From Candidatus Woesebacteria bacterium (GTDB taxonomy: Bacteria; Patescibacteriota; Microgenomatia; UBA1400; UBA12108), in NCBI GenBank assembly GCA_018060845.1, contig JAGOVG010000002.1, positions 23,581-87,580 on the forward strand: DNA of 64,000 nucleotides. The letters run 5' to 3'. Of this stretch, positions 28,109-62,724 are shown one piece after another; position 1 is the first letter of the stretch; every line of letters begins with the position of its first letter. Under the pieces are notes generated by a model, which made no database searches, had not been told where the DNA came from, and saw only the letters and a program-made list of their open reading frames with translations. The position numbers and the translations under genes were made by a program.

Positions 28109-30342
28109 AAATCCTCTATATGGTCGACTACTATCAGCCGCAGATAGGGTACAACGAGTACTATCTCCCATCTGAGTGGTCGCGACTTGGCCATGATGTC
28201 ACAATCCTGACTTCTGATCACTACTATCCTTTTCCTAACTATGAGGAGACTGTAGGTAAACTGCTCGGTGCACGTCGTCAAAAACCAGGGATTTATAAGC
28301 AAGACAAGATCACGGTTATTAAAAAGCCCATGCAGTTTGAAGTCTTTACTAGAGCAGTATTCGGTGGTCATGAGTCAATAATTAACAAAATACGACCCGA
28401 CATTGTAATCGTAAATAAGTCATCTAGCTATAACTCATTCCAAGCAGCTAGGTTAAAAAAGAAATATCACTACAAATTAATCACATATGATGCCCATTTG
28501 ATGTCTGGGTACAACGCCGTCGGAAATGTTGCGTTCAAAGATTTTGTTTATTGGCTGTATCGCTTGACCATATCGAGATATATGAACAAGAGAGTAGACA
28601 AATACATCGCAGTGCAAGAAGGCACGGTTGATGTGATGATCAACTTGTATGGTCAAAAACCTGTAGAACACATACCGCTTGGTACCGATCCTGAGCGTTT
28701 TAGGTATGATATTGCAGCAAGGCGGGAAACAAGAAAAAAATATCAGATTCCGATCACTGCGAGCGTTGGGATATATACTGGCAAAATAATCCCTACTAAA
28801 GGCGTATCTATCTTATATGAGGCATTTGGTAGACTAGCCAAAAAAAATCCCAACCTACACCTCTTAATCGTTGGTTCAGGAGGTGCTGACTACATCAAAC
28901 AATGCGAAAGTCTAGTTGACTCAAAATATCTCAAGCGAATCCATCTAGTTGGATTTAAGGAAACCAAAGAGTTATACAAATTCTACTCAGCATCAGATTT
29001 TGGGATCTGGCCTCTAGAAGAATCTACTTCAATGAATGATGCTGCAGCGTGTGAAATACCCTTTATAGCTAACGACGAAGCCGGGGTGAAGCAAAGGTTC
29101 AAAAATGACAATGCGCTTAAATATCTGAGAGGTGATAGTAGAGACCTCTCAGTTAAAATGGAGTACCTAATTAACAACCCCAAGGAAGCTAAAAACATGG
29201 GAAAAAGGGGTAGAGAGTTAATTTTGAATGAGCTTAGTTGGAACAAGATCGCAAAGCAGTATTTATCTGTCATAAAGGGTGACGTAGAGCAAGACCTAAG
29301 TAAAACCCTTGATTGGCTAGAAGAAGCGCAGCGTGTAACTGGAGACGGAGGTGTGTCAGCATACCATATGATAATCAGAGGGTGGGCACCTTCTTTTATC
29401 GAAACGACTGGATATATTATATCGACGTTTCTAGATGCCGCTAAACATAAGAATAATAAAATATATCTTCGTCTCGCTATCAAGATGGGGGATTTCATTA
29501 TCAGCAATCAGCTAGGTAATGGTGGGTATCGAACTTATACCAAAGGGCATGTTGAATTATCTGAACCTACGATCTTTAACACAGCTCAAGACATTATTGG
29601 ATTAGTCGACCTATATCTTGTAACTAAAGACAAAAAGTATCTTAACTCAGCTCAGCTAGCCGGAGATTTTTTAGTTTCTTCTCAAAATCAGGATGGATCA
29701 TGGACTCAGTTTACCCATAATAGCGTGCCAAAAACATATCACTCACGAGTAGCTTATGCACTCCTAAAATTATATGAAATCAATCGCAAGTTAACATTTA
29801 AGAAAGCAGCGATAAAGCAGCTAGATTGGGTGCTATCAAGACAGCTAAAGAATGGTTTTGTCACTAATGCCGAGTTGCCAGTCGCTAAATATCCTTTTAC
29901 CATCACTCATACGATTGCGTATGTCGCCGAAGGATTGTTATACAGTGCAAAAATCTTAAAATCAAACAAATATCAAACAGCAGCTCTAAGAATTATTGAT
30001 AAAGTTCATCGGCACTATCTCTCATACAACGAACTCCCGTCATATTTTGATCAAAACTGGAAACCACAGGAGAAGTTTGGATGTCTGACTGGTGAAGCTC
30101 AGTTTGCGATCCTATTTATGGAGACGTACAAAATCAAGAACGATCAGTCTTATCTATCAAGCGCATACAACCTTATTAATAGAATAGGGGTAGACATGTC
30201 GGCTACGGGTGGTATCCCAGGTTCCAGACCAATATACGGAGATTTATTGCACAACCGGGGTTATTGTCGCTTATCTTATATCAACTGGGCAGCAAAGTTT
30301 ACCGCTGATGCCGAAATGTTATTCTTAAGTATATGGAAATAA
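28105..30342 (+). CDS. Bifunctional-looking protein: N-terminal GT4 glycosyltransferase fused to a C-terminal alpha/alpha-toroid (six-hairpin, QW-repeat-like) domain
   Basis: 745 aa. The GT4 region spans roughly residues 1-390. The C-terminal portion (about 350 aa) has repeated Q..(D/N)G(S/G)(W/Y) units (QNQDGSWTQ, NQLGNGGYRT, RQLKNGFVT) reminiscent of prenyltransferase/terpene-cyclase or AGE-type toroids. Confidence 0.55.
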   Translation: MKILYMVDYYQPQIGYNEYYLPSEWSRLGHDVTILTSDHYYPFPNYEETVGKLLGARRQKPGIYKQDKITVIKKPMQFEVFTRAVFGGHESIINKIRPDIVIVNKSSSYNSFQAARLKKKYHYKLITYDAHLMSGYNAVGNVAFKDFVYWLYRLTISRYMNKRVDKYIAVQEGTVDVMINLYGQKPVEHIPLGTDPERFRYDIAARRETRKKYQIPITASVGIYTGKIIPTKGVSILYEAFGRLAKKNPNLHLLIVGSGGADYIKQCESLVDSKYLKRIHLVGFKETKELYKFYSASDFGIWPLEESTSMNDAAACEIPFIANDEAGVKQRFKNDNALKYLRGDSRDLSVKMEYLINNPKEAKNMGKRGRELILNELSWNKIAKQYLSVIKGDVEQDLSKTLDWLEEAQRVTGDGGVSAYHMIIRGWAPSFIETTGYIISTFLDAAKHKNNKIYLRLAIKMGDFIISNQLGNGGYRTYTKGHVELSEPTIFNTAQDIIGLVDLYLVTKDKKYLNSAQLAGDFLVSSQNQDGSWTQFTHNSVPKTYHSRVAYALLKLYEINRKLTFKKAAIKQLDWVLSRQLKNGFVTNAELPVAKYPFTITHTIAYVAEGLLYSAKILKSNKYQTAALRIIDKVHRHYLSYNELPSYFDQNWKPQEKFGCLTGEAQFAILFMETYKIKNDQSYLSSAYNLINRIGVDMSATGGIPGSRPIYGDLLHNRGYCRLSYINWAAKFTADAEMLFLSIWK

Positions 30343-45711: not shown

Positions 45712-46214
45712 TTAACTGCACATTTGAAAACGGCAACGTTGCACTCCCAGGTATTAGGCACGTCACTACCTCTAACATTATTTTGAATGATAAGAATCAG
45801 GTAATAATGTGTTTGCGAGGTTCAAAAAATGGCATACCAATACTAGAGAGCGGAAAATGGGGACTACTAGGTGGCTTTGTAGATCGTGACGAAACTGTCT
45901 CTGAATCAGTTAGACGTGAGGTAATGGAAGAATCTGGCTGGACGATTGATGATGTATCCTTATTCTGCATTAACGATAACCCCAACCGTCCCAAAGAAGA
46001 TCGCCAGAATATCGATTTTGTCTATATTGCCCGGGTAGTTAGTCAAAAAGAAGTTATCGACGAAGAAGTCAGAGAACTCCGCTGGTTTGATCTAGACAAG
46101 TTGCCGCCCGATGACCAGATCGCCTTTGACCACTCACTCGCACTAAAGCTATACAAAAAGCATCTAAAAAATCCTCTCGTCCTACCCATCTTTGGGTATG
46201 GTGCGCTAGAATAG
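45708..46214 (+). CDS. NUDIX hydrolase (nucleotide-sugar/GDP-mannose hydrolase-like)
   Basis: GGFVDRDETVSESVRREVMEESG is a Nudix box (G-x5-E-x7-REuxEExGu). ATG 45708 forms ATGA with the upstream stop. The track start at 45666 lies inside the upstream gene. Confidence 0.7.
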   Translation: MINCTFENGNVALPGIRHVTTSNIILNDKNQVIMCLRGSKNGIPILESGKWGLLGGFVDRDETVSESVRREVMEESGWTIDDVSLFCINDNPNRPKEDRQNIDFVYIARVVSQKEVIDEEVRELRWFDLDKLPPDDQIAFDHSLALKLYKKHLKNPLVLPIFGYGALE

Positions 46215-46218
46215 ACAT

Positions 46219-46827
46219 ATGAACTTCCCCCTCAAAGACAAACACGGCAAGAGTTATACCTGGAGCGAGGCCTTTTTTGGCAAGGCAATCCCGAGACTCG
46301 AGTCGTATCTCCTCGACTTTACACTCATGTGCTTGGATGTAACTACTCACATCCCCAGCCATACTCTCCGTAACTTTATCTGGCGCAGTGTCGGGATTAA
46401 GATGGGTGCTAACTCCACACTCCATACAGGCGTCAGGGTATACGACCCTCGCAATATCAAGATCGGGGAGGGGACTATCATCGGCCGCGGTGTCTTTATC
46501 GATGGCAGAGATATGGTAACTATCGGCAGTCACACCAGCATCGCGAGCGAGGTCATGATCTATAGCAGTGAACATGATCTAGCTGCTACTGATTTTCGCG
46601 CAGTTAGTGAGCCAGTCAAAATCGGCGACTACGTCTTTATCGGCCCACGAGCGATCATCCTCCCAGGTGTCAGTATCGCTGATCGCGCTGTTGTTGGAGC
46701 TGGAGCAGTCGTCACCAAAGATGTCATGGAGGGCGAGATAGTAGGTGGTGTCCCTGCAAAACTAATTGGAGAGCGCAAACTAAAGAAAGCCAACTATCGC
46801 CTAGGTCGCTTTAAACTATTCCAATGA
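46219..46827 (+). CDS. Sugar O-acetyltransferase, left-handed beta-helix (hexapeptide-repeat) family (WbbJ/WcaF/LacA-like)
   Basis: Repeating [LIV]-G-x-x-x-x hexapeptides (IGEGTIIGRGVFIDG, IGDYVFIGPRAIILPGVSIADRAVVGAGAVV). Confidence 0.75.
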   Translation: MNFPLKDKHGKSYTWSEAFFGKAIPRLESYLLDFTLMCLDVTTHIPSHTLRNFIWRSVGIKMGANSTLHTGVRVYDPRNIKIGEGTIIGRGVFIDGRDMVTIGSHTSIASEVMIYSSEHDLAATDFRAVSEPVKIGDYVFIGPRAIILPGVSIADRAVVGAGAVVTKDVMEGEIVGGVPAKLIGERKLKKANYRLGRFKLFQ

Positions 46828-50841: not shown

Positions 50842-52043
50842 AAATCCTGATGCTCACCCCTTATCTCCCGTACCCACTGGTCTCCGGGGGACAGATCAGG
50901 ACTTACAATCTTCTTAAGGCTCTCAGTACCAAACACGAGATCACACTATTCGCTCTGATCAAAGAAGATTCAGAACGGGAGCACCTTGCTGAGCTCAAAA
51001 AATACTGTAGCAAAATAATCTTATTCAAAAGAACGCGTCATCCATTTGTGTTGCGCAATATCCTCCTCGCTGGCTTTACCGCTTACCCCTTTGTTGTGAC
51101 TCGCAATCTCCCGCTAGGAATGGCTACAGCTATTGAGAAAGAACTCTCAACCACAGCTTATGACCTGATCCACGCTGAGACTTTTTACATGATGCCTAAC
51201 ATCCCAGATACCAAGATCCCGATCATCTTAGCTGAGCAAACAATTGAGTACCTGGGTTACCAAGATTACATGAAAAAAGCTAATCCGCTCCTGCGTCCCA
51301 TCCTCGCGATCGATGTCGCCAAGATCAAATATTGGGAGCGACACTACTGGAAAAAGGCTGACAAGCTAATCACGATGTCTGAAGAGGATAAACAGTTTAT
51401 CGAAAAAGAGCTGGGAACAACGACTAATACTAGTGTCGTTGCTAACGGGGTAGACCTAGCCTATTTTTCAGCTCTCAAAAAAAAGCTCCCCAAAGACCCC
51501 ACTGTCCTCTTTGTCGGAACATTTAAGTGGCTACCCAACAAAGAAGCTGTCGAAGAAATAGTGACAAAGATCTGGCCGCTAATCAAAGCCAAGTTGCCGA
51601 CTGCCAAGCTTAAGATAGTTGGTTTTTCACCTACTCCACGCATCCAGTCTTTTGCCTCAGATCCATCAATCGAAGTACTCGGGGCTATCAAAGATATCCG
51701 TGATGCTTTTGCGACCAGCCACATGCTCCTGGCACCGATTAGGAGTGGTAAGGGGACTAGGTATAAAGTGCTCGAAGCCATGATTACAGGCACTCCAGTG
51801 GTCGCGACTAGCTTAGCTGCGGAGGGGATTGAGCTCACAGACGGCCAAAATGTCTTGATCGCCGATACAGTTGCCGATTTGGCTGAGAGTACCGTCCGCT
51901 TGCTCAAAGACAATGCGCTCCAAACTAAGCTCGGTGCAGCTGGTCAAAGCGTGGTTAAGCGCTCCTACAGCTGGGATGGTATAGCTCGCCAGCTAGATGC
52001 AGTCTACCAAGAATTCAAAAATTCAAAGTATAAAAAGAGTTAA
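50838..52043 (+). CDS. GT4 family glycosyltransferase
   Basis: MKILMLTPYLPYPLVSGGQIRTYNL N-terminus. GTRYKVLEAMITGTPVVATS. Confidence 0.75.
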   Translation: MKILMLTPYLPYPLVSGGQIRTYNLLKALSTKHEITLFALIKEDSEREHLAELKKYCSKIILFKRTRHPFVLRNILLAGFTAYPFVVTRNLPLGMATAIEKELSTTAYDLIHAETFYMMPNIPDTKIPIILAEQTIEYLGYQDYMKKANPLLRPILAIDVAKIKYWERHYWKKADKLITMSEEDKQFIEKELGTTTNTSVVANGVDLAYFSALKKKLPKDPTVLFVGTFKWLPNKEAVEEIVTKIWPLIKAKLPTAKLKIVGFSPTPRIQSFASDPSIEVLGAIKDIRDAFATSHMLLAPIRSGKGTRYKVLEAMITGTPVVATSLAAEGIELTDGQNVLIADTVADLAESTVRLLKDNALQTKLGAAGQSVVKRSYSWDGIARQLDAVYQEFKNSKYKKS

Positions 52044-52049
52044 GATGAT

Positions 52050-52952
52050 ATGAAAAATAAACTTGATTTATCAATCATTATTGTCTCACACAACAGTCAC
52101 AGTTTTTTGCGCCAAACACTCAACTCACTAGCTACTCAACAAAATATTTCATACGAGATCATCGTCGTAGATAACTTAAGCACTGACAAGACTCGTGAGA
52201 TGCTAAAGAGTGAATTCCCCGGGGTTACTTTGATCAAAAGAGATACTTCTGTAGGCTTTGCCGCTGCCAACAATGTAGGGATCAAGCAAGCTACTGCGGG
52301 GACTCTGCTCTTCCTCAATCCCGATATTAGTTTTAATACTCCGACTGACCTCGCTCGCTGCTATGAACACTTGAACATTGATAACAAGATCTCCTGTCTC
52401 GGTCCCAAGGTGACTCTCGCCCTAACAGGTGAGATCGACGCTACCTCGCACCGCGGCTTCCCGACCCCTTTTGCGAGCTTTACTCACTTTAGCGGACTCT
52501 CTAGATTGTTCCCGAATGTTGCCATGCTTAATCAATACACCAAGAGTTATCTTGGCTACGATCACGAACACGAGATCGATGCGATCGGTGGTATGTTTAT
52601 GATGCTCAAGCGAGAGGCGGGGGAGAGCATCGGATGGTGGGACGAAGAATATGATTTTTATGGTGAGGATCTAGACTTATGTTATCGATTGTGGCAACAC
52701 AATCTGCGGATTCTTTACTACCCAACAGTAACTATCAAGCACTATAAGGGTGCGACCACCGGCATGAGCCGAGCTAGTCGCTCAGTCACTACTGCGTCAG
52801 TCGAAAAAACGCGCCAGGTCCGCCGCTGGTCTATACAGGCGATGGAGATTTTTTACCGTAAGCATTATCAAAAAAAGTATCCATTCTTGATCAACTGGAT
52901 TGTCTTCCTCGGTATTCGCCTTATGAAGTTCCGTCGTGTCACCCTAGCATAA
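52050..52952 (+). CDS. GT2 family glycosyltransferase
   Basis: LSIIIVSHNSHSFL, IIVVDNLSTDKT, FAAANNVGIK, EDLDLCYR. This is the last gene of the long co-directional array. Confidence 0.75.
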   Translation: MKNKLDLSIIIVSHNSHSFLRQTLNSLATQQNISYEIIVVDNLSTDKTREMLKSEFPGVTLIKRDTSVGFAAANNVGIKQATAGTLLFLNPDISFNTPTDLARCYEHLNIDNKISCLGPKVTLALTGEIDATSHRGFPTPFASFTHFSGLSRLFPNVAMLNQYTKSYLGYDHEHEIDAIGGMFMMLKREAGESIGWWDEEYDFYGEDLDLCYRLWQHNLRILYYPTVTIKHYKGATTGMSRASRSVTTASVEKTRQVRRWSIQAMEIFYRKHYQKKYPFLINWIVFLGIRLMKFRRVTLA

Positions 52953-52953
52953 A

Positions 52954-53478
52954 CTAACTTGGCCATTTCTCGTATACTATTCCAAGGCTAAGCATTTCTA
53001 AGCTGTAATTCAATACATTGCTAAAAAACGCCTCTCCAACCTCCTTATGTAAATCATGAAACTCGAGTAATACTGGCAACAAATCCGCGACAGCATAACT
53101 CGGAATCTTAGGCTTTCCGCTTATATACCTCAAACCATTGATTGAAAGTTGAAATAGCATATTTAGACCAGGTCCCTCCTTGTAGGTCGCCAGCTGACAA
53201 AATGGTCGTACTACGGTTTTCATATCTGGGCTAATAATCGTCCCTTCAAGACTTCTGTTAGTGTCACACCTAATCGCTAGATATGAAACGTGTGGATTCT
53301 CCTTCTTTATAGCAATCACCTCAGTTCCCATATTTTTCAGAGTTACAATCTGTAATGCCTGACGACGTTTGAAACTATCCGACATGTTTTGCAAGGTCAT
53401 CATTTCCGCAAACGCGCACCCCGGATGATTAAATATGAGCTGTGATAGGTCGTATTGAGTAGGGGAAATTTCTGTCAT
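52954..53478 (-). CDS. Hypothetical protein (about 174 aa), the only antisense gene inside the glycosylation locus
   Basis: Clean 525-nt ORF with no competing sense-strand ORF. Its TAG stop (52954-52956) lies 1 nt from the TAA of the convergent GT2 gene. The likely start is ATG 53476-53478 (the track start 53479-53481 is TTG). No recognisable motif. Confidence 0.5.
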   Translation of the reverse strand: MTEISPTQYDLSQLIFNHPGCAFAEMMTLQNMSDSFKRRQALQIVTLKNMGTEVIAIKKENPHVSYLAIRCDTNRSLEGTIISPDMKTVVRPFCQLATYKEGPGLNMLFQLSINGLRYISGKPKIPSYAVADLLPVLLEFHDLHKEVGEAFFSNVLNYSLEMLSLGIVYEKWPS

Positions 53479-53481
53479 CAA

Positions 53482-53538
53482 TGCATTATACCCTATAATA
53501 TAATAGATAGCAGGTGGCTAATCAGCTATAATCATCAC
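53482..53538. promoter_or_regulatory. Divergent intergenic promoter region between the antisense gene and the downstream GT4 gene
   Basis: 57-nt AT-rich spacer contains TATAATATAATAGATAG and CAGCTATAATCATCAC (-10-like hexamers on both strands). Confidence 0.35.
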
Positions 53539-54642
53539 ATGGTCAGAATCGCAATTGATGCACGCTTTTATGGGACAGAGCACACAGGGCTAGGTCGCTA
53601 TACCACTAACGTTCTTAGTTACCTCCCAAGCCACCTCAAAGATCATCAGTTATTTGTCCTCTTGCGCCGTAAATACTTTGAGACTTTAACATTGCCAGCT
53701 AACTGTACCAAGGTACTCTTTGACGTGCCACACTATACATTTGCAGAGCAAATTTTTTACCCTCTCAAGCTTGCTTCTTTAAATATCGACCTGCTCTACA
53801 CACTCCACTTTAATACGCCTATTCTGATTAGAGTGCCGACAGTGGTAACTCTGCACGACCTCATCAAAACCTACTTTACTGGTCGAGAGACGACTACTCG
53901 CGCTCCCTGGCTCTACCATATCAAGCGAGCCGGGTACAATCTAGACGTCCGCCACAGCCTGGTCAACGCTAGTGCAGTGATTGTCCCGACTAATACAGTC
54001 AAAAACCAGATTCTGGCCAACTTCCCCCTGGTCAAACCAGAGCACATCCACCCCATCCCCGAAGCACCCGACCCCATGTTCAAAAGTAGTCCAAAATTGG
54101 ACACAGGACATTCGTCACTAGACATTCCCTCCAAATACATTTTATTTGTCGGTAACGCATATCCACACAAAAACCTCCCTGTTCTGTTAGAAGCCTTCAA
54201 AAAACTAAAAGACCCAGCCCTAAACCTGGTAATAGTTAGTAAGCTATCGCCATTCCTCTCCCGTACGCTAGCCCCATACGAACCCAAAAATATTCATATT
54301 ATGAGTGAGTTAACGGATCAAGAGTTGCACTTGGTCTATCAAAGCGCGTCTGCATTGGTTACTCCATCACTTATGGAGGGCTATGGTCTAGTAGGACTCG
54401 AGGCGATGATGCTCGGCGTGCCAGTGATCGCGAGCAACATCCCAGTCTATCGCGAGGTCTATGGTGACTTGGTTACCTATTTTGATCCAACCAATTCTGA
54501 CCAGTTATCTACAGCTATAAAATCAGTGCTAGCTGACCCTGCACCTGTTCCTCTCAATTTTACTCGCACCTGGGATAACGTCTCACAATCTATCGCGGAG
54601 GTGATTAATGCGAGTTGCGCTCGTTTACGACCGGCTAAATAA
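53539..54642 (+). CDS. GT4 family glycosyltransferase
   Basis: MVRIAIDARFYGTEHTGLGRYT N-terminus is typical of GT4. EGYGLVGLEAMMLGVPVIASNIPVYREV. Confidence 0.8.
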   Translation: MVRIAIDARFYGTEHTGLGRYTTNVLSYLPSHLKDHQLFVLLRRKYFETLTLPANCTKVLFDVPHYTFAEQIFYPLKLASLNIDLLYTLHFNTPILIRVPTVVTLHDLIKTYFTGRETTTRAPWLYHIKRAGYNLDVRHSLVNASAVIVPTNTVKNQILANFPLVKPEHIHPIPEAPDPMFKSSPKLDTGHSSLDIPSKYILFVGNAYPHKNLPVLLEAFKKLKDPALNLVIVSKLSPFLSRTLAPYEPKNIHIMSELTDQELHLVYQSASALVTPSLMEGYGLVGLEAMMLGVPVIASNIPVYREVYGDLVTYFDPTNSDQLSTAIKSVLADPAPVPLNFTRTWDNVSQSIAEVINASCARLRPAK

Positions 54643-55702
54643 AACAGGAGGAGCCGAGCGAGTCCTCGTAGCTTTTCACGAACTGTTTCCAGATGCCCAT
54701 TGGTATACCAGCATCTGGGATCCGAGTGGTGCTTCCTTTAGCCGTGATTGGCATGTAACCTCTAGTTTTGTCAGCAAAATCCCATATCTGCGAAGGCGTC
54801 ACGAGATATTACCTCTACTCATGCCATTTATTTTCGAATCCTTTGACTTTTCTCAATATGACCTCGTAATCAGTATCGGTAGTGCCGAGTCTAAGGGGAT
54901 TATTACAAAGCCAGGTACTCTCCACATTAACTATTGTCTTACGCCTACTCGTTACCTCTACTCGCATAGTGAGGAATATTTAAATAACAAGCTATACAAA
55001 TTCCTCTCAAATCCGCTGCGAGCTTGGGATCAGGTAGCAGCTAGACGCCCAGATAGAATGATAGCAATAAGTACTCAAGTGAAAAAAAGAATCAAGCAGT
55101 ATTACAACCGGGATAGCGAGGTCATCTTTCCCCCCGTCGATACGAAAAAATTCTCGAATCTAGATACACTTGATTCACTTGTTTTACCTGATTTCCCATC
55201 TTTCTATTTCCTCGTGGTCTCCCGCTTGGTGCCGTACAAAAAAATCGACACACTCATACATGCCTTTAATCAGCTCCCCGATCACAACTTAGTAATAGCC
55301 GGTACAGGGAGCGAGATGAGCAAGCTCAAAAAGATGGCAGGGGATAATGTCACCTTTTTGGGAAGTGTTGCTGACTCTGACTTACCTAGTCTCTACCAAC
55401 ATGCGACATCATTTTTACAAGCTAACGAAGAAGATTTTGGCATTAGTATGGTCGAAGCTCAGGCGGCCGGGGTTCCGGTTATTGCATATAATCAAGGTGG
55501 AGCGAGCGATATTGTCAAAGACGGTCTAACTGGTATACTTCTCAGGTCTAACTCTGTAGAGAGTTTTGTTCAAGCGATTGACAATTTTGACGCTAAGCGT
55601 TTTGATAGGGTGGACTGCCAAAGAAATGCTAAGCGTTTTGAAACCGCTAAATGGATGCAAAAAATAATGGAAAGGATAGGTGGATATGTCGACACTCACT
55701 AA
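54608..55702 (+). CDS. GT4 family glycosyltransferase
   Basis: MRVALVYDRLNKTGGAERV. EDFGISMVEAQAAGVPVIAYNQGGASDIV. Confidence 0.75.
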   Translation: MRVALVYDRLNKTGGAERVLVAFHELFPDAHWYTSIWDPSGASFSRDWHVTSSFVSKIPYLRRRHEILPLLMPFIFESFDFSQYDLVISIGSAESKGIITKPGTLHINYCLTPTRYLYSHSEEYLNNKLYKFLSNPLRAWDQVAARRPDRMIAISTQVKKRIKQYYNRDSEVIFPPVDTKKFSNLDTLDSLVLPDFPSFYFLVVSRLVPYKKIDTLIHAFNQLPDHNLVIAGTGSEMSKLKKMAGDNVTFLGSVADSDLPSLYQHATSFLQANEEDFGISMVEAQAAGVPVIAYNQGGASDIVKDGLTGILLRSNSVESFVQAIDNFDAKRFDRVDCQRNAKRFETAKWMQKIMERIGGYVDTH

Positions 55703-57414: not shown

Positions 57415-59372
57415 ATGGGTCGAGTGCTGCGACTGAACCTCAGTTTGACAAGTTTAAAAAAGATGAGCCGGTTAGTCTGGTCGAGCCAAAAAAATCTTCT
57501 AAGAAGCCACTCTACAAACGCCCCTGGTTCATAATTCTTTTAACTTTTATCTTGGTACTTTCGACTCTCTTTGGTTACCTCGGTTATATTGCCTTTAACA
57601 CTTACTCAAAAATAGGTGCAGTCGAGTCGCATGGTCGCGGTGCTGCAGCAGCTTTTCAGGCACGTGATCTCCAAACCGCAAAGACCGAAATCGAAAATAC
57701 CAAAAATGCTCTCGCCGAGGCCAACCAGACTTATCAATCAGTGAGACCATTCATGGCTATCCCCGTGCTCGGCGCCTATCTCAAAGACGGTGATAGGGTC
57801 TTTACTGCCAGCACACAGGGTGTAGAGGTAGCAGAACTCGTAGTTCGTGCAATTGAGCCTTACGCTGAACTCATGGGCTTTACCGGTGCCATCTCCTCTG
57901 ACCCAGCGCTAGCTACTGCCGAAGACAGGATCATTTTCGTCGCCGAGACAGTCGAAAAATTGGCACCCGAAATGGACAACATCAGTGCCAAGCTAAAACA
58001 GGTCGATGAGGCCATCTCCCAGATTGACGAGAACCGCTACCCCAAAACCATCAATGGCATGAATGTGAGAGAGAATATTACTCAGGCCAAGGCTACTGTC
58101 TCTGGTCTCGCTAGCTCGCTCAGCAATTTTCAACCAATAGTCAAACTATTGCCTGATCTCCTAGGTAACCCCGATCCTCGCAAGTACTTGCTCCTTTTCC
58201 AAAACGATGCGGAGCTGCGTGCAACTGGTGGCTTCTTAACTGCTTATGCAACTCTCACTATCACCAAAGGCAAGATAGAGCCCGGTATCTCCGAAGATAT
58301 CTATACTCTCGATAATGGTTTTAAGAAAAAAGTCCCAGCCCCAGATCCTATCAAAAAATACCTACCACTAGTCTATAACTGGAATCTTAGAGACATGAAT
58401 CTCTCTCCAGATTTTAAAGTGAGTATGGATACCTTTACCACCTACATGCGCGAGAGCTCAGTGGCTCCCGAATACGACGCCATTATCGCGATCGACACCG
58501 AGGTGCCAGTTCGCATACTTAAAGTCTTGGGTCCTATTGGAGTGTCTGGTTACGGTGGCAAGTTTAGTGCAGAAAACGATCCACGCTGCGACTGTCCTCA
58601 GGTCATCTACGAACTAGAGAATATTATTACCAAGCCAACCTACGAGATTAGGGAGGGTCGAAAGAGTATCCTAGGGCCCTTGATGAACAGTATGCTAGCC
58701 AACATGATGGGTAGTCCTAAGGCCAAATGGGCAGAGTTCTTTAATATCTTTACCGAGAGTATCGAGCAAAAACATCTCCTTATGTACTTTAAGGACGAGA
58801 ACAAACAGTTAGCCGCCGAGGCACTCGGTGCGGCCGGCAGACTAACTTCTTATACCGAGGGTGACTACCTCCACATCAACGACAGCAACTTTGCAGGAGC
58901 CAAGAGTAATCTGTTTGTCGAATCCGAGGTGACCCAAGAGATCTCGTTAAATGAAGATGGAAGTGCAACCAAAAAACTGACTCTAACTTACAAAAATCCC
59001 AGGAAAGGTGACAACTGTAATCTCGAAGCAGGTCAGCTCTGTCTCAATGGACTCTTGCGTAGCTGGACCCGGATCTATGTCCCCAAAGGCAGTGTGCTCA
59101 AGGGTGGACGAGGCTTTGAGGCAGACATGGAGACCAACGAGGATCTAGGCTATACCGTACTCGAAGGGTTCTTTACCTTAGCTCCCCAATCTGTCAAAAA
59201 ACTAGAGGTCGAATATACCATCCCCGCTGGCACCATTAAGGGGAATGATTACAAGATGTTAATCCAGAACCAGCCAGGTACTGACCCCGTCAAACACACG
59301 ATCACGGTAAGCGGTACCAAAGCCAAGGTAGTGACTATTGATTCTGATCAAGAGATTACGATAAGTAGATAA
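57408..59372 (+). CDS. DUF4012-like secreted/membrane-anchored protein
   Basis: N-terminal TM (WFIILLTFILVLSTLFGYLGYIAF). LLLFQNDAELRATGGFLTAYATL matches the N.ELR.TGG hallmark of DUF4012. ATG 57408 overlaps the upstream stop. Confidence 0.55.
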   Translation: MVNGSSAATEPQFDKFKKDEPVSLVEPKKSSKKPLYKRPWFIILLTFILVLSTLFGYLGYIAFNTYSKIGAVESHGRGAAAAFQARDLQTAKTEIENTKNALAEANQTYQSVRPFMAIPVLGAYLKDGDRVFTASTQGVEVAELVVRAIEPYAELMGFTGAISSDPALATAEDRIIFVAETVEKLAPEMDNISAKLKQVDEAISQIDENRYPKTINGMNVRENITQAKATVSGLASSLSNFQPIVKLLPDLLGNPDPRKYLLLFQNDAELRATGGFLTAYATLTITKGKIEPGISEDIYTLDNGFKKKVPAPDPIKKYLPLVYNWNLRDMNLSPDFKVSMDTFTTYMRESSVAPEYDAIIAIDTEVPVRILKVLGPIGVSGYGGKFSAENDPRCDCPQVIYELENIITKPTYEIREGRKSILGPLMNSMLANMMGSPKAKWAEFFNIFTESIEQKHLLMYFKDENKQLAAEALGAAGRLTSYTEGDYLHINDSNFAGAKSNLFVESEVTQEISLNEDGSATKKLTLTYKNPRKGDNCNLEAGQLCLNGLLRSWTRIYVPKGSVLKGGRGFEADMETNEDLGYTVLEGFFTLAPQSVKKLEVEYTIPAGTIKGNDYKMLIQNQPGTDPVKHTITVSGTKAKVVTIDSDQEITISR

Positions 59373-59403
59373 TTTGTGAAGATTTGAGAATTTGAGATTT
59401 GTG
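59371..59403. promoter_or_regulatory. Four tandem ATTTG(T/A)G units upstream of recO (candidate operator/promoter element)
   Basis: AATTTGTGAA-GATTTGAGA-ATTTGAGA-TTTGTG with about 9-nt periodicity in the 45-nt intergenic space. The GGAG RBS follows at 59413-59416. Confidence 0.3.
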
Positions 59404-59417
59404 TAGATTATAGGAGT

Positions 59418-59930
59418 ATGAAGTATCACAAATATCACGCCATAGTCATCAATCGTCGAAATATTAAAGATGCAGATCGGTTTTTGACGCTTTATACTCT
59501 AGAGTCAGGCAAGGTAGATGTATATGCGAGGAGTGTGCGGAGCCTCAAATCTAAGCGCCTAGCGAGCCTAGATCTCTTTACCCACATCTCATGCGAGGCT
59601 ATCGAGAAGAATGATCGTCTCACCCTCACTCACGTTGACTTATTGCATACCCACCAAGATAGTAAGACCAGTCTCGCCAACATTTCGCGCCTATTCCAGA
59701 TAGGGGAATTAGTCGACAAACTGACGCCTGATGGTGATCCACATCCCGAGGTCTACAATCTACTATTAACAGCCCTAACCCACCTCCACCGCTTTGACAC
59801 CCCCGAATACTTAACCAGATTCAAAAAGAAGCTCCTGACTGAGCTAGGCTTTGATCCAGATCCTGCCGATCTCGACGCATACATCGAGAGTTTACTCTCT
59901 CGCCCGCTCCGCACTAGACATATATTGTAG
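59418..59930 (+). CDS. recO: DNA repair protein RecO (short form)
   Basis: YHAIVINRRNIKDADRFLTLYTLESGKVDVYARSVRSLKSKRLASLDLFTHI matches the RecO N-terminal OB-fold consensus pattern. Confidence 0.6.
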   Translation: MKYHKYHAIVINRRNIKDADRFLTLYTLESGKVDVYARSVRSLKSKRLASLDLFTHISCEAIEKNDRLTLTHVDLLHTHQDSKTSLANISRLFQIGELVDKLTPDGDPHPEVYNLLLTALTHLHRFDTPEYLTRFKKKLLTELGFDPDPADLDAYIESLLSRPLRTRHIL

Positions 59931-59964
59931 AATTATATAACTGTCCAATAATTTAAGGAGCAAT

Positions 59965-60171
59965 ATGTTTGTGCAATATCCAACACCAGATATGAATTAT
60001 GGTCAGGCTAATATGATTGTCAGTGAATGGGAGAGAGCTGGGAGACCAGAGCCGATGACATCAGAACAAGCATTGGCATATGCGATGATGTCACCGATTC
60101 CTAAAGAAATAGATCTGACACCATTAGTCGCAGCTATCGGTGATGGGCCAATTCCTGAAGGTACTCCATAA
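59965..60171 (+). CDS. Small hypothetical protein (68 aa) between recO and glyS
   Basis: AAGGAG RBS at 59955-59960, 4 nt before the ATG. This position parallels the small ORF found between recO and glyQ in Firmicutes. Confidence 0.45.
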   Translation: MFVQYPTPDMNYGQANMIVSEWERAGRPEPMTSEQALAYAMMSPIPKEIDLTPLVAAIGDGPIPEGTP

Positions 60172-60204
60172 GAACAGGTTAGTTTGTTGTGCTAAACTAT
60201 TCAC

Positions 60205-61590: not shown

Positions 61591-62387
61591 ACAAACCACT
61601 AGTCGCGACCATCGTCGGTCTCATACTCGCCATTATTACTGGCTTCTTAGTCTTTAATAAAAAGGACAAGGCTCCAACCGAACAGGTAGACGAAGAAGAG
61701 CTCGATCTCCCGATCAATACCATCCCCCAGTCTGAGCGTCCATTTATTACCCTCTCACCCGATGAGAGTGGGCGTAGTCTCGACCTGTATGTCGCAGGTG
61801 CCCCGACCGAGGGAGAGCTAGAGTACGAGCTGGTCTATCAGACAGTCGAAGTCCAAGAAGGGGTCTTTGGTCGACTAGATCTAGAGAACGAAAAACAGCC
61901 TGTGATTAAAAGCCTGTTGCTAGGTAGCAAATCTGCTGGTGGCAAGGTGACCTATCACGAGGGAGTATCCGGTGGCACAGTGACAGTGACCTATGGCACT
62001 ACGAGACTCAAAGAGAACTTTAGTTACCTCAAGTTTGATCCGGCAGACCCAACCCTCCTTTCGACCGACGGCAGGTTCGTCGTGACTTTACCAAAGACAG
62101 CTCTCAAAGCTGACACCAGAGTCTTAACAATGAAAACTTTTGGCTATCCGAAGGCTGGCCTGCCCGCCGAAACTGCGAAGCTGTTGGCGGGGCCATACTC
62201 TGCTGCTTATTCAGTCGAGCCAAAGAGTGTAACCTCAGTTGAGATCAAGCTCCCCGCTGGTGAACACACCAATCCAGCAATCTATGGCTGGGATGGCAAG
62301 ACTTGGACAAAGTTACCAACTAAGCTAGGTAAAGACAGTGTACTTACGACTTCGGCTCTAGAAAGCTATGTAGTTATAACTGACTAA
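61587..62387 (+). CDS. Hypothetical membrane-anchored extracytoplasmic protein
   Basis: N-terminal TM LVATIVGLILAIITGFLVF, then a soluble domain of about 235 aa. ATGA overlap with glyS. Confidence 0.5.
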   Translation: MNKPLVATIVGLILAIITGFLVFNKKDKAPTEQVDEEELDLPINTIPQSERPFITLSPDESGRSLDLYVAGAPTEGELEYELVYQTVEVQEGVFGRLDLENEKQPVIKSLLLGSKSAGGKVTYHEGVSGGTVTVTYGTTRLKENFSYLKFDPADPTLLSTDGRFVVTLPKTALKADTRVLTMKTFGYPKAGLPAETAKLLAGPYSAAYSVEPKSVTSVEIKLPAGEHTNPAIYGWDGKTWTKLPTKLGKDSVLTTSALESYVVITD

Positions 62388-62724
62388 CTACTATATTTTT
62401 GACCGCTACCCTTAATCTCTGAGCTAAATCCACTCTACCACTTTGTTCGAGAGAGTCAGCTTTTAAGTTAGTTAACGCAGCAAGATCGCTATTATGTATA
62501 TCTCCGCCGTTAATTCGGTCGGGATCAACGGTATTCCAAATGAGTTCGTACAATATTGTAGTATTCTCAGAAATCTTACTGGGATCACCGTCACTGAAAA
62601 ACTCGATAGAAGCACACCATCCGAATAGAGTACCCAGATCAAATGGAGTGGGGAGACGTTTCACATCTCTTCCAAAAATCGGCTTTAATTCAACTGGTAT
62701 TTCTGGCAAATTACTACTAATCAT
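62374..62724 (-). CDS. Small hypothetical protein (116 aa), convergent with and overlapping the 3' end of the upstream gene
   Basis: Minus-strand ATG 62722-62724 is preceded by AGGAG with a 5-nt spacer (ctaactAGGAGtcgttATG). Overlaps the plus-strand gene by 14 nt. No motif recognised. Confidence 0.45.
   Translation of the reverse strand: MISSNLPEIPVELKPIFGRDVKRLPTPFDLGTLFGWCASIEFFSDGDPSKISENTTILYELIWNTVDPDRINGGDIHNSDLAALTNLKADSLEQSGRVDLAQRLRVAVKNIVVSQL

Follow-up and report, generated by a model that had tools for sequence, protein, structure and literature searches.

ORFan genes of the flexible genome are typically acquired horizontally and are often located in surface-polysaccharide loci. 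Around the free-standing homing endonuclease genes of phages, the neighbouring sequence is recoded while the protein that it encodes is kept homologous. As regards the start of transcription, a -10 box situated 6-8 nt 5' of the start codon in the first genes of transcription units has been described as a leaderless signature (PMC6028130), and our search of the literature on leaderless transcription in CPR returned nothing specific.

In this study a 64 kb stretch of a Candidatus Woesebacteria MAG (hereafter the window) was analysed with regard to a single minus-strand open reading frame, ORF174, which lies between two glycosyltransferase genes, GT2 and GT4, of a glycan locus. We consider it reasonably probable that ORF174 is a real, independently transcribed and protein-coding orphan, carried by an accessory cassette which one Woesebacteria sub-lineage acquired.

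Results

GT2 is the last gene of the upstream plus-strand run, with its TAA stop at 52950-52952, and GT4 is the first gene of the downstream plus-strand run (Table 1). ORF174, entered in the MAG annotation as KBD69_01630 (MBP9702364.1, hypothetical protein), stops at 52954-52956 (CTA on the plus strand, TAG on the minus strand) and starts with the ATG at 53478-53476; an alternative in-frame TTG start at 53481 would give a product of 175 aa. The first-pass annotation had described the stops of GT2 and ORF174 as convergent and 1 nt apart, with no room for terminators, and both points were borne out: only base 52953 separates the two stops, a hairpin scan of the junction was negative, and folding 52900-53010 on either strand gave z = +0.3. 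The divergent spacer of 57 nt that it reported is correct if the TTG start is taken and becomes 60 nt with the ATG start, a trivial mix-up. It was also right in calling ORF174 the sole strand switch within the glycan locus; every other non-overlapping ORF that reaches 150 aa lies on the plus strand. A second minus-strand ORF (62374-62724, 116 aa), unrelated to ORF174, lies beyond the glycan cluster, so that it would be wrong to speak of the only switch of the window. The minus-strand ORFs found in two of the other loci (L011 and L033) show no relationship to ORF174 nor, as far as the comparison was made, to the 116-aa ORF.

Table 1. Features of the GT2-ORF174-GT4 region, in window coordinates.
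Feature	Position	Strand	Evidence
GT2 glycosyltransferase gene, 300 aa	52050..52952	+	Pfam PF00535 Glycos_transf_2, E 2.3e-21; MBP9702363.1
Near-identical tract shared by window and L001, 707 nt, 2 differences	52836..53542	.	Pairwise alignment
Cassette, 640 nt in place of 68 nt of the closest ORF-less alleles (L002, L003, L004)	52886..53525	.	
Swapped 3' tail of GT2, encoding ...YPFLINWIVFLGIRLMKFRRVTLA	52886..52952	+	BLASTN and protein comparison
ORF174, orphan of 174 aa	52954..53478	-	ORF list and NCBI annotation
Divergent spacer, 60 nt, four perfect TATAAT	53479..53538	.	Hexamer count
TATAAT, GCATTG (6 nt), ORF174 ATG; putative -10 box, leaderless-type	53485..53490	-	
Two overlapping TATAAT inside the cassette	53494..53499 and 53499..53504	+	
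TATAAT, CATCAC (6 nt), GT4 ATG; ancestral -10 box just beyond the cassette	53527..53532	+	
GT4 glycosyltransferase gene, 367 aa	53539..54642	+	Glycos_transf_1, E 6e-28; ATG 53539

The predicted soluble product of ORF174 has a mass of 19.7 kDa and a pI of 6.4, and contains no transmembrane segment (maximum 19-residue hydropathy 1.20). Its frame is the sole open one of the 586-nt gap between GT2 and GT4, with 2 stops (the terminal ones) against 11-21 in each of the other five, and it is stop-free for 187 codons, almost the full length of the insert; the plus-strand frames opposite ORF174 carry 11-16 stops each. Calculated by hand from base composition, the probability that 175 consecutive codons are free of stops at 41% GC is ~1.6e-5. 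GC at the three codon positions (0.47/0.35/0.41) resembles the native pattern (0.49/0.37/0.45), and the codon score is above that of 98.9% of composition-matched, stop-free random ORFs. This score is no proof of coding, since at 0.068 it falls below all 48 native genes (lowest 0.103) and inside the range of spurious antisense ORFs, which reach 0.12. Chance antisense ORFs of 160-174 codons are present opposite real genes in the window; they were discounted as a parallel because real coding on the opposite strand suppresses stops, while the strand opposite ORF174 is non-coding. A near-identical copy of ORF174 on a second contig, L001, is also called as a gene in an ENA-derived record. The single-sequence AlphaFold model of ORF174 reached a pLDDT of 40, which fits an orphan folded without an alignment and equally a product that does not fold. 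At sequence level ORF174 looks like a real gene.

The first-pass statement that the protein has no recognisable family was confirmed, ORF174 having no match in Pfam, NCBIfam, PHROG or PADLOC even at lenient thresholds (for PADLOC, E up to 10). Among ~15 billion proteins its sole relative is P0001, which is 99% identical and is encoded on contig L001. A word-indexed search of 5.8 billion clusters returned no relative beyond this copy, and with phmmer, run exhaustively over 1.84 billion representatives, nothing else that was genuine appeared, three further matches below 1e-3 being artefacts caused by tandem-repeat proteins which align short stretches repeatedly. There was no match among PDB sequences and no significant match in a fold search. 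Searches of phage and plasmid records with ORF174 (tblastn) and of phages with the cassette (blastn) were empty, and scanning viral, metagenome and GTDB genome contigs for back-translated patterns gave nothing either. Loose likenesses to a Bet v 1, START or frataxin-like fold, from the predicted order of one helix, seven strands and one helix, and to an HD domain, from the motif FHDLHK, were dismissed for want of statistical support. Judged by these searches, ORF174 is a strict orphan.

Readings of the insert other than as a minus-strand gene were also considered. No RNA family was matched in an Rfam E-value scan of 52700-53800 or in a gathering-threshold scan of the window, and no tRNA or tmRNA was found; on these results a structured non-coding RNA was rejected. 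A decayed plus-strand gene with an open shadow frame was rejected on account of the stops in the plus-strand frames and of tblastx comparisons of the insert with the window and all loci, in which the GT2 tail alone is matched.

ORF174 is missing from 15 out of 15 syntenic loci of related Woesebacteria/Microgenomates, in which GT2 and GT4 share a strand and are separated by -4 to 42 nt. These loci keep the order PMT_2-GT4-GT2-GT4-GT4-NTP_transferase-Bac_transf-DUF4012 on a single strand, and their GT4 orthologues range from at least 90% down to 36% identity with that of the window. The glycan operon can be said to need no ORF174, because all 15 loci keep the operon, and mostly the -10 box as well, without the gene. 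The regulatory or accessory role that had been proposed for ORF174 from its position is therefore not supported, failing as it does the first-pass annotation's own check of conservation in syntenic loci, and no features of a glycan-pathway enzyme or accessory protein (family match, transmembrane segment) were found in it. Since only two strains carry the cassette and 15 related loci are without it, ORF174 is a recent add-on, being neither a conserved part nor a regulator of the glycan pathway.

The edges of the cassette were placed by BLAST breakpoints at 52885 and 53526 and by the junction sequences. Its left part replaces the end of GT2: the tail at 52886-52952 shows homology to the ORF-less alleles at protein level (12/24 aa, hand count) and gives no BLASTN nucleotide alignment with them, while the adjoining 50 nt are 100% identical in five strains. 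The best tblastx match of this tail is that of L011/L022 (57% aa), which implies that the tail was brought in from a lineage that is more distant and unsampled. The GC content of ORF174 (41% vs 43.8%) is hardly atypical, and there is no integrase, transposase, tRNA or repeat at the insertion. An insertion sequence, transposon or MITE was rejected, there being no transposase domain, only short end repeats of 75-80% identity (chance level) and no second copy of the cassette in the window or in 34 loci. An integron gene cassette was likewise rejected, as neither end has an inverted repeat, the neighbours are glycosyltransferases and ORF174 is served by a promoter of its own, which typical cassettes lack; so too was an anti-phage defence or toxin-antitoxin function, PADLOC being empty and the cassette holding a single gene with no partner. 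A second variable slot, located upstream of mraZ, shows the same behaviour as the GT2/GT4 junction.

The window and L001, both of them metagenome assemblies (L001 at ~3.9x coverage), are the only carriers of ORF174. Within the tract that they share, 2 differences were seen vs ~39 expected (53139 T/C, giving N114D, and 53419 C/A, synonymous), which are too few for selection to be measured, and in the flanks the two diverge by 5-10%. Between them dS is 0.009 for ORF174 compared with 0.14-0.32 for five neighbouring glycan genes, so that the cassette has been exchanged recently; it is ~25 times younger than its flanks. The tract is not unique in kind, because divergence within the pair is mosaic elsewhere too, the 707-nt tract being the longest of the young ones. 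In the right flank (5' half of GT4_b, 5' end of GT4_c) L001 is nearer the ORF-less strains than the window, and in the body of GT2 the window, L001 and the ORF-less lineages are about equidistant. At the right edge the shared tract runs just 4-17 nt past the cassette, which is short for the anchor of a plain homologous recombination event.

With regard to promoters, the divergent spacer is indeed rich in TATAAT, as had been claimed: it holds 4 of the 41 perfect hexamers of the window, against an expectation of ~0.04 at the window-wide density, and the hexamer is rarer in the window than chance (41 vs 63 +/- 8 in shuffles). The arrangement TATAAT-N6-ATG occurs at just two sites in 64 kb on both strands, these being the starts of ORF174 and GT4, whose -10 boxes are separated by 36 nt. 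Its relaxed form, TANNNT-N6-ATG, precedes 8 of the 21 genes of the window that are first in a unit (after a positive gap), ORF174 and GT4 included, against a background of 2% (P = 8e-9). TATAAT-6 nt-ATG may consequently be taken, from its geometry, as a leaderless-type start signal of this genome. The overlapping plus-strand pair inside the cassette could provide extra, putative upstream promoters for GT4. The GT4 -10 box is found at the same place in most ORF-less relatives (L002-L005, L007, L008, L010, L011, L015, L016 and L022), and the promoter boundary is for this reason older than the insertion. The transcriptional boundary proposed by the first-pass annotation is thus supported by the box 6 nt before the GT4 ATG, but the suggestion that ORF174 created it is not.

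Discussion

The best explanation of these observations is that the cassette landed at a promoter junction already present inside the operon, between GT2 and GT4, and that it has lately passed between two strains that elsewhere diverge by 5-10%. The most likely route would be homologous recombination, with the conserved 3' region of GT2 and the conserved start of GT4 serving as anchors, and the final 22 codons of GT2 may have come along in a foreign version. Transcription of ORF174 probably begins at or beside its ATG from its own TATAAT, which would yield a leaderless mRNA; because there is no terminator, this transcript would run antisense into the end of GT2. Transcription of the long upstream operon would, for its part, have to pass 586 untranslated bases antisense to ORF174 before reaching GT4, and interference may be expected. 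GT4 and the later genes would stay independently expressed because the ancestral -10 box is retained.

Several other readings must be weighed against a protein-coding orphan gained by recombination. The insert may be non-coding or dead DNA, in which the 174-codon frame is untranslated and the cassette matters as a spacer or promoter module or not at all; this would account for the lack of homologues, the poor structure prediction and a codon score that lies under every native gene and is equalled by spurious antisense ORFs, and chance antisense ORFs of comparable length do exist opposite real genes in the window. We nevertheless regard it as unlikely, since the strand opposite ORF174 is itself non-coding, unlike that of the chance ORFs, so long an open frame is hardly to be expected by chance at this GC content, the first ATG of the frame stands exactly 6 nt past a perfect TATAAT and GC by codon position is gene-like. 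Likewise unlikely, in our estimation, is that ORF174 acts as a divergent regulator or accessory factor which, by binding either the shared 60-nt control region or a component of the pathway, tunes the GT4 sub-operon in the carrier strains. The back-to-back promoters, with -10 boxes so close together, have the classical layout of a regulator and its target operon, and 5' of the GT4 -10 box the cassette brings new sequence, in which TAGATA makes a better -35-like element. Set against this, neither a DNA-binding (helix-turn-helix or similar) nor any other domain is found with Pfam and NCBIfam, no operator-like repeat rises above chance level, the syntenic loci keep the operon and in most cases the box without the gene, and a gene so much younger than its surroundings has not co-evolved with the locus. 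An assembly artefact is highly improbable. The cassette, or the near-identity of the two contigs, would in that case come from strain-chimeric metagenome assembly, with which the metagenomic origin of both carriers, the low coverage of L001 and the mosaic divergence of the pair, compatible with strain switching, would agree; the same 640-nt cassette and junctions are, however, present in two independent assemblies with diverged flanks, and as identity ends 4-17 nt past the edge, a switch in the k-mer graph would presumably require the cassette to be already present in both strains.

It is also conceivable, if improbable, that ORF174 is a selfish homing-type element, i.e., a site-specific DNA endonuclease of an unrecognised family that cuts the ORF-less GT2/GT4 junction, repair from the carrier then copying the gene together with a co-conversion tract and the diverged GT2 tail making the carrier uncuttable. 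Such an element would be expected to sit, as ORF174 does, between genes adjacent in all non-carriers, to have its own promoter, to be near-identical in otherwise diverged genomes, to show sharp edges of the exchanged tract near the cassette and to have adjacent DNA (here 67 nt) recoded in nucleotides with the protein still homologous. No nuclease motif or domain was however detected (Pfam, NCBIfam, PHROGs and PADLOC at lenient thresholds, PDB sequences, fold search), homing endonucleases form large families whereas ORF174 has no relatives, neither the window nor any of the loci retrieved holds a second copy, and just two carriers are known. Moreover, ordinary recombination with selection or drift yields the same pattern, and the replacement of the tail at 52886-52952 and the near-identity of 52836-53542 between carriers are likewise predicted by plain recombination. 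That ORF174 founds a new family of homing-type endonucleases, or is another self-propagating gene spreading among Woesebacteria strains, we hold to be very doubtful. If the homing reading were true, it would mean a new nuclease family in a new setting, that of intronless homing in a CPR chromosome with no known nuclease signature.

For a recently gained orphan gene, which remains our preferred interpretation, the locus is instructive in several respects. A strand switch inside a biosynthetic cluster is, taken alone, no sign of a regulator, the comparative data here pointing to a recent and dispensable add-on. Single-gene flux can be followed in a streamlined CPR genome with base-level edges, which bears on how orphans are gained without recognisable mobile-element machinery, and insertion exactly at a conserved internal promoter suggests that operon boundaries may be permissive landing sites. 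That a Woesebacterium shows signs of leaderless-type promoters at sequence level should also help the prediction of start codons and operons in CPR.

In comparison with known systems, the LysR- and TetR-type pairs of divergent regulator and operon share with ORF174 the back-to-back promoters and the short intergenic region 5' of a biosynthetic operon, but ORF174 has no DNA-binding domain, is not conserved with the operon and is much younger. The seg and mob genes of T4-like phages (intronless homing) are similar in that one small gene with its own promoter lies between otherwise adjacent genes, the flank is co-transferred, the target is diverged in carriers and the carriers are near-identical within diverged genomes; they differ in that ORF174 has no GIY-YIG, HNH, LAGLIDADG, PD-(D/E)XK, His-Cys or EDxHD signature and no family members, and that its host is a cellular CPR bacterium instead of a phage. 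The 'group C' leaderless promoters of GeneMarkS-2 (Actinobacteria, Deinococcus-Thermus; PMC6028130) find their likeness in the TANNNT-N6-ATG of 8/21 first-in-unit genes, here in a MAG of Woesebacteria (CPR), where the leaderless start is suggested by geometry alone. Strain-specific ORFan genes differ from ORF174 in that its GC is barely atypical, its insertion is free of integrase, transposase, tRNA and repeat, and its cassette holds a single gene, has clean edges and brings a swapped tail for the gene next to it. They resemble it in that it is taxonomically restricted (two carriers), without homologues and dispensable in relatives, in its codon usage, which lies under that of all native genes, in its own promoter and in its position within a cell-surface glycan cluster, where its neighbours are conserved. 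ORF174 is most probably to be classed as a dispensable, horizontally acquired and strain-specific gene of the flexible genome, of the mobile-element or phage-interaction type.

Results

Gene layout at the GT2/GT4 junction

The coordinates reported by the first-pass annotation for the GT2 stop, the minus-strand ORF (ORF174) and the downstream GT4 gene were correct on re-check (see table); the GT2 and ORF174 stops lie 1 base apart, and every other non-overlapping ORF of 150 aa or more in the 64-kb window is on the plus strand. The 57-nt spacer described between ORF174 and GT4 requires the in-frame TTG at 53481 to be the start; measured from the ATG it is 60 nt. A scan for terminator-like hairpins at the convergent GT2 and ORF174 ends found none, and 52900–53010, folded on either strand, was no more stable than shuffles (z about +0.3), bearing out the claim that no terminator is present there. 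The layout is confirmed as described, its interpretation being only partly supported.

Coordinates of features (in the window unless a contig is named)
Feature	Position	Strand	Details
GT2 glycosyltransferase gene	52050–52952	+	Pfam Glycos_transf_2, E 2e-21; TAA at 52950–52952
ORF174	stop 52954–52956, ATG at 53478	-	174 aa; TANNNT-N6-ATG start
GT4 glycosyltransferase gene	start 53539	+	Glycos_transf_1, E 6e-28
TANNNT-N6-ATG starts	6185, 10237, 20700, 34657, 37549, 46219, 53539, 60205	+	motif preceding ATG
Shadow ORFs within plus-strand genes	28985–29507, 46071–46578, 51463–51943	-	160–174 codons
ORF between recO and glycyl-tRNA synthetase gene	59965–60171	+	68 aa
Same ORF in relatives	L011 12877–13098; L031 10664–10924		73 and 86 aa
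Orphan ORF KBD69_01680	62374–62724	-	116 aa; between 266-aa gene and mraZ

Relatives and coding status of ORF174

ORF174 (KBD69_01630, MBP9702364.1, annotated as a hypothetical protein) encodes a protein of 19.7 kDa and pI 6.4 with 0 transmembrane segments, and, as had been stated, it has no recognisable family: Pfam, NCBIfam, PHROGs and PADLOC gave no match, lenient thresholds included. When 5.8 billion protein clusters were queried through an index, the sole match was P0001 (99% identical), encoded on L001, an ENA contig of 8.8 kb whose genes follow the order seen in the window. Exhaustive phmmer against 1.84 billion representatives added just three tandem-repeat proteins, rejected as homologues since their scores reflect a short chance match repeated many times, and nothing was found in viral, metagenome or GTDB genome contigs, phage and plasmid records or PDB sequences. 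Rfam and tRNA scans of the region were empty, and a structured RNA or tRNA was rejected. On these searches the protein is new, in the sense of being without relatives.

The ORF174 frame is stop-free for 187 codons within the 586-nt gap, the other five frames having 11–21 stops, and its GC content per codon position matches the native gene pattern. Its codon log-likelihood (+0.068 per codon, above zero in this frame only) exceeds that of 98.9% of random stop-free ORFs of equal composition and is lower than that of all 48 native genes (0.10–0.37). Comparable scores, up to 0.12, were reached by spurious ORFs antisense to real genes, so codon usage alone is no proof that ORF174 is coding. Three shadow ORFs in the window also score as high as ORF174, a warning against calling minus-strand genes here by length or codon usage alone.

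Promoter signals

The spacer between ORF174 and GT4 holds four perfect TATAAT hexamers, against about 0.04 expected for such a length. Window-wide, on both strands, the hexamer is depleted (41 versus 63 ± 8 in dinucleotide-preserving shuffles, 100/100 of which had at least 41), as might be expected if genes avoid spurious -10 boxes in their interior. A perfect TATAAT stands exactly 6 nt upstream of the ORF174 ATG, and TATAAT-N6-ATG occurs at only two sites in the window (both strands), those of ORF174 and the divergent GT4. Of the 21 plus-strand genes separated from the preceding gene by a positive gap, 8 carry the looser TANNNT-N6-ATG at their start (background 2%, P = 8e-9) and three others have 7–8 nt spacing; no obvious Shine-Dalgarno motif was seen at the TANNNT-N6-ATG starts. 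A -10 box 6–8 nt before the start codon is a signature of bacterial leaderless transcription (PMC6028130). The enrichment suggests that leaderless-type transcription starts are widespread in this Woesebacteria genome. With their shared TATAAT-N6-ATG geometry, both divergent genes bear its typical first-gene signal. ORF174 is inferred to be expressed.

Ancestral state and cassette edges

Fifteen Woesebacteria/Microgenomates loci without ORF174 span the junction (L002–L005, L007, L008, L010, L011, L014–L016, L022, L023, L031 and L032), with GT4 orthologues whose identity to that of the window falls from at least 90% to 36%. In all 15 the order PMT_2-GT4-GT2-GT4-GT4-NTP_transferase-Bac_transf-DUF4012 is collinear on the plus strand, and GT2 and GT4 are adjacent (gap -4 to 42 nt, no intervening gene); the ancestral junction thus had no ORF, its presence in the window and L001 representing a gain. 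The 42-nt spacer of L031 (4172–4214) contains a small tandem duplication (ACTTTATAAACTT ... ACTTTATAAACTT), and the junction is length-variable even without the ORF.

Compared with the closest ORF-less alleles (L002–L004), homology ends at 52885 and restarts at 53526, a 640-nt cassette standing in place of 68 nt; the exchanged part takes in the last 67 nt of GT2. The protein encoded by the swapped GT2 tail is still homologous to ORF-less tails (12/24 residues identical by hand count), yet BLASTN found no nucleotide alignment to the closest ORF-less alleles across it, and its best match, at 57% aa, is in L011/L022, a lineage further removed. Over the 50 nt just before the tail (52836–52885), identity among all five strains is 100%. 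ORF174 would thus have arrived jointly with a foreign GT2 tail from an unsampled lineage. Terminal inverted repeats, target duplications and extra copies of the cassette were looked for and not found.

The transcriptional boundary proposed at the junction is plausible, but ORF174 did not create it. The GT4 TATAAT box (53527–53532) lies just outside the cassette and is kept, 6–8 nt before the ATG, in ORF-less L002–L005, L007, L008, L010, L011, L015, L016 and L022; L014 and L023 lack the box, and L031 has no perfect copy. The boundary would therefore predate ORF174, as an old feature of the locus where the cassette landed.

Recent exchange between strains

Across 7.6 kb, identity between the window and L001 is 94.8%, whereas 52836–53542 (707 nt, running 4–17 nt past the cassette on its right) holds two differences, N114D and one synonymous, against about 39 expected. 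For ORF174 their dS is 0.009; the five glycan genes next to it give 0.14–0.32, and recO gives 0.84. The two backgrounds therefore split roughly 25 times longer ago than the cassette is old, and the cassette was recently exchanged between strains. Selection on the protein was rejected as the cause, as it cannot account for conserved synonymous sites. In the right-hand flank L001 is closer to ORF-less strains than to the window, at the GT4_b 5' half (92.2% versus 89.9%) and the GT4_c 5' end (about 96% versus 93.1%), and in the GT2 body the window, L001 and ORF-less lineages are about equidistant. Divergence is mosaic elsewhere too, rising to 60–69 differences per 200 nt at 59276–59930 (DUF4012 3' end, recO), with further near-identical tracts at 54876–55275, 57976–58175 and 59876–60175. 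Both strains are mosaics, which fits frequent recombination.

Other variable intergenic genes

KBD69_01680, a second orphan, has no Pfam match and is a singleton in a 15-billion-protein collection. At this slot upstream of mraZ, L005, L031 and L032 have a plus-strand Ser_hydrolase gene, and L033, L034 and L011 have minus-strand ORFs of 154, 130 and 95 aa, those of L033 and L011 showing no similarity to KBD69_01680; the slot looks to be another operon-boundary site where variable genes land. The ORF between recO and the glycyl-tRNA synthetase gene, with no Pfam match recorded in the window, L011 or L031 and absent in L005 and L032, is another small variable gene.

Discussion

We consider it probable that ORF174 is an orphan gene that is dispensable, was acquired horizontally and has a leaderless-type promoter of its own. 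The cassette would have landed at a permissive promoter junction inside the operon and lately passed between strains, most simply by recombination anchored in the conserved block at the 3' end of GT2 and in the start of GT4. Because nothing terminates transcription there, the ORF174 transcript would extend into the 3' end of GT2 in antisense; transcripts reading through from the operon upstream would have to traverse 586 untranslated bases antisense to ORF174, and GT4 and downstream genes would depend on their kept promoter.

That the insert is untranslated is unlikely, the start signal being a stronger argument for a gene than codon usage. The regulatory or accessory role initially suggested does not hold against the empty domain searches and the 15 syntenic loci without the gene, making a divergent regulator quite unlikely. 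The anatomy would suit a homing-type selfish gene well: an insertion between genes that brings its own promoter, a recoded target next to it, and a young tract with sharp edges. With neither nuclease signature nor family, however, this is improbable. Assembly chimerism is unlikely because a k-mer graph would switch strains at the tract end only if both shared the cassette, and an artefactual cassette is very improbable indeed.

What is useful here, though no major surprise, is that the cassette edges are well resolved, that cassette and flanks contrast in age, and that a CPR genome shows leaderless-type promoter geometry; ORF174 itself belongs to a known kind, that of strain-specific orphan genes in surface-glycan loci.
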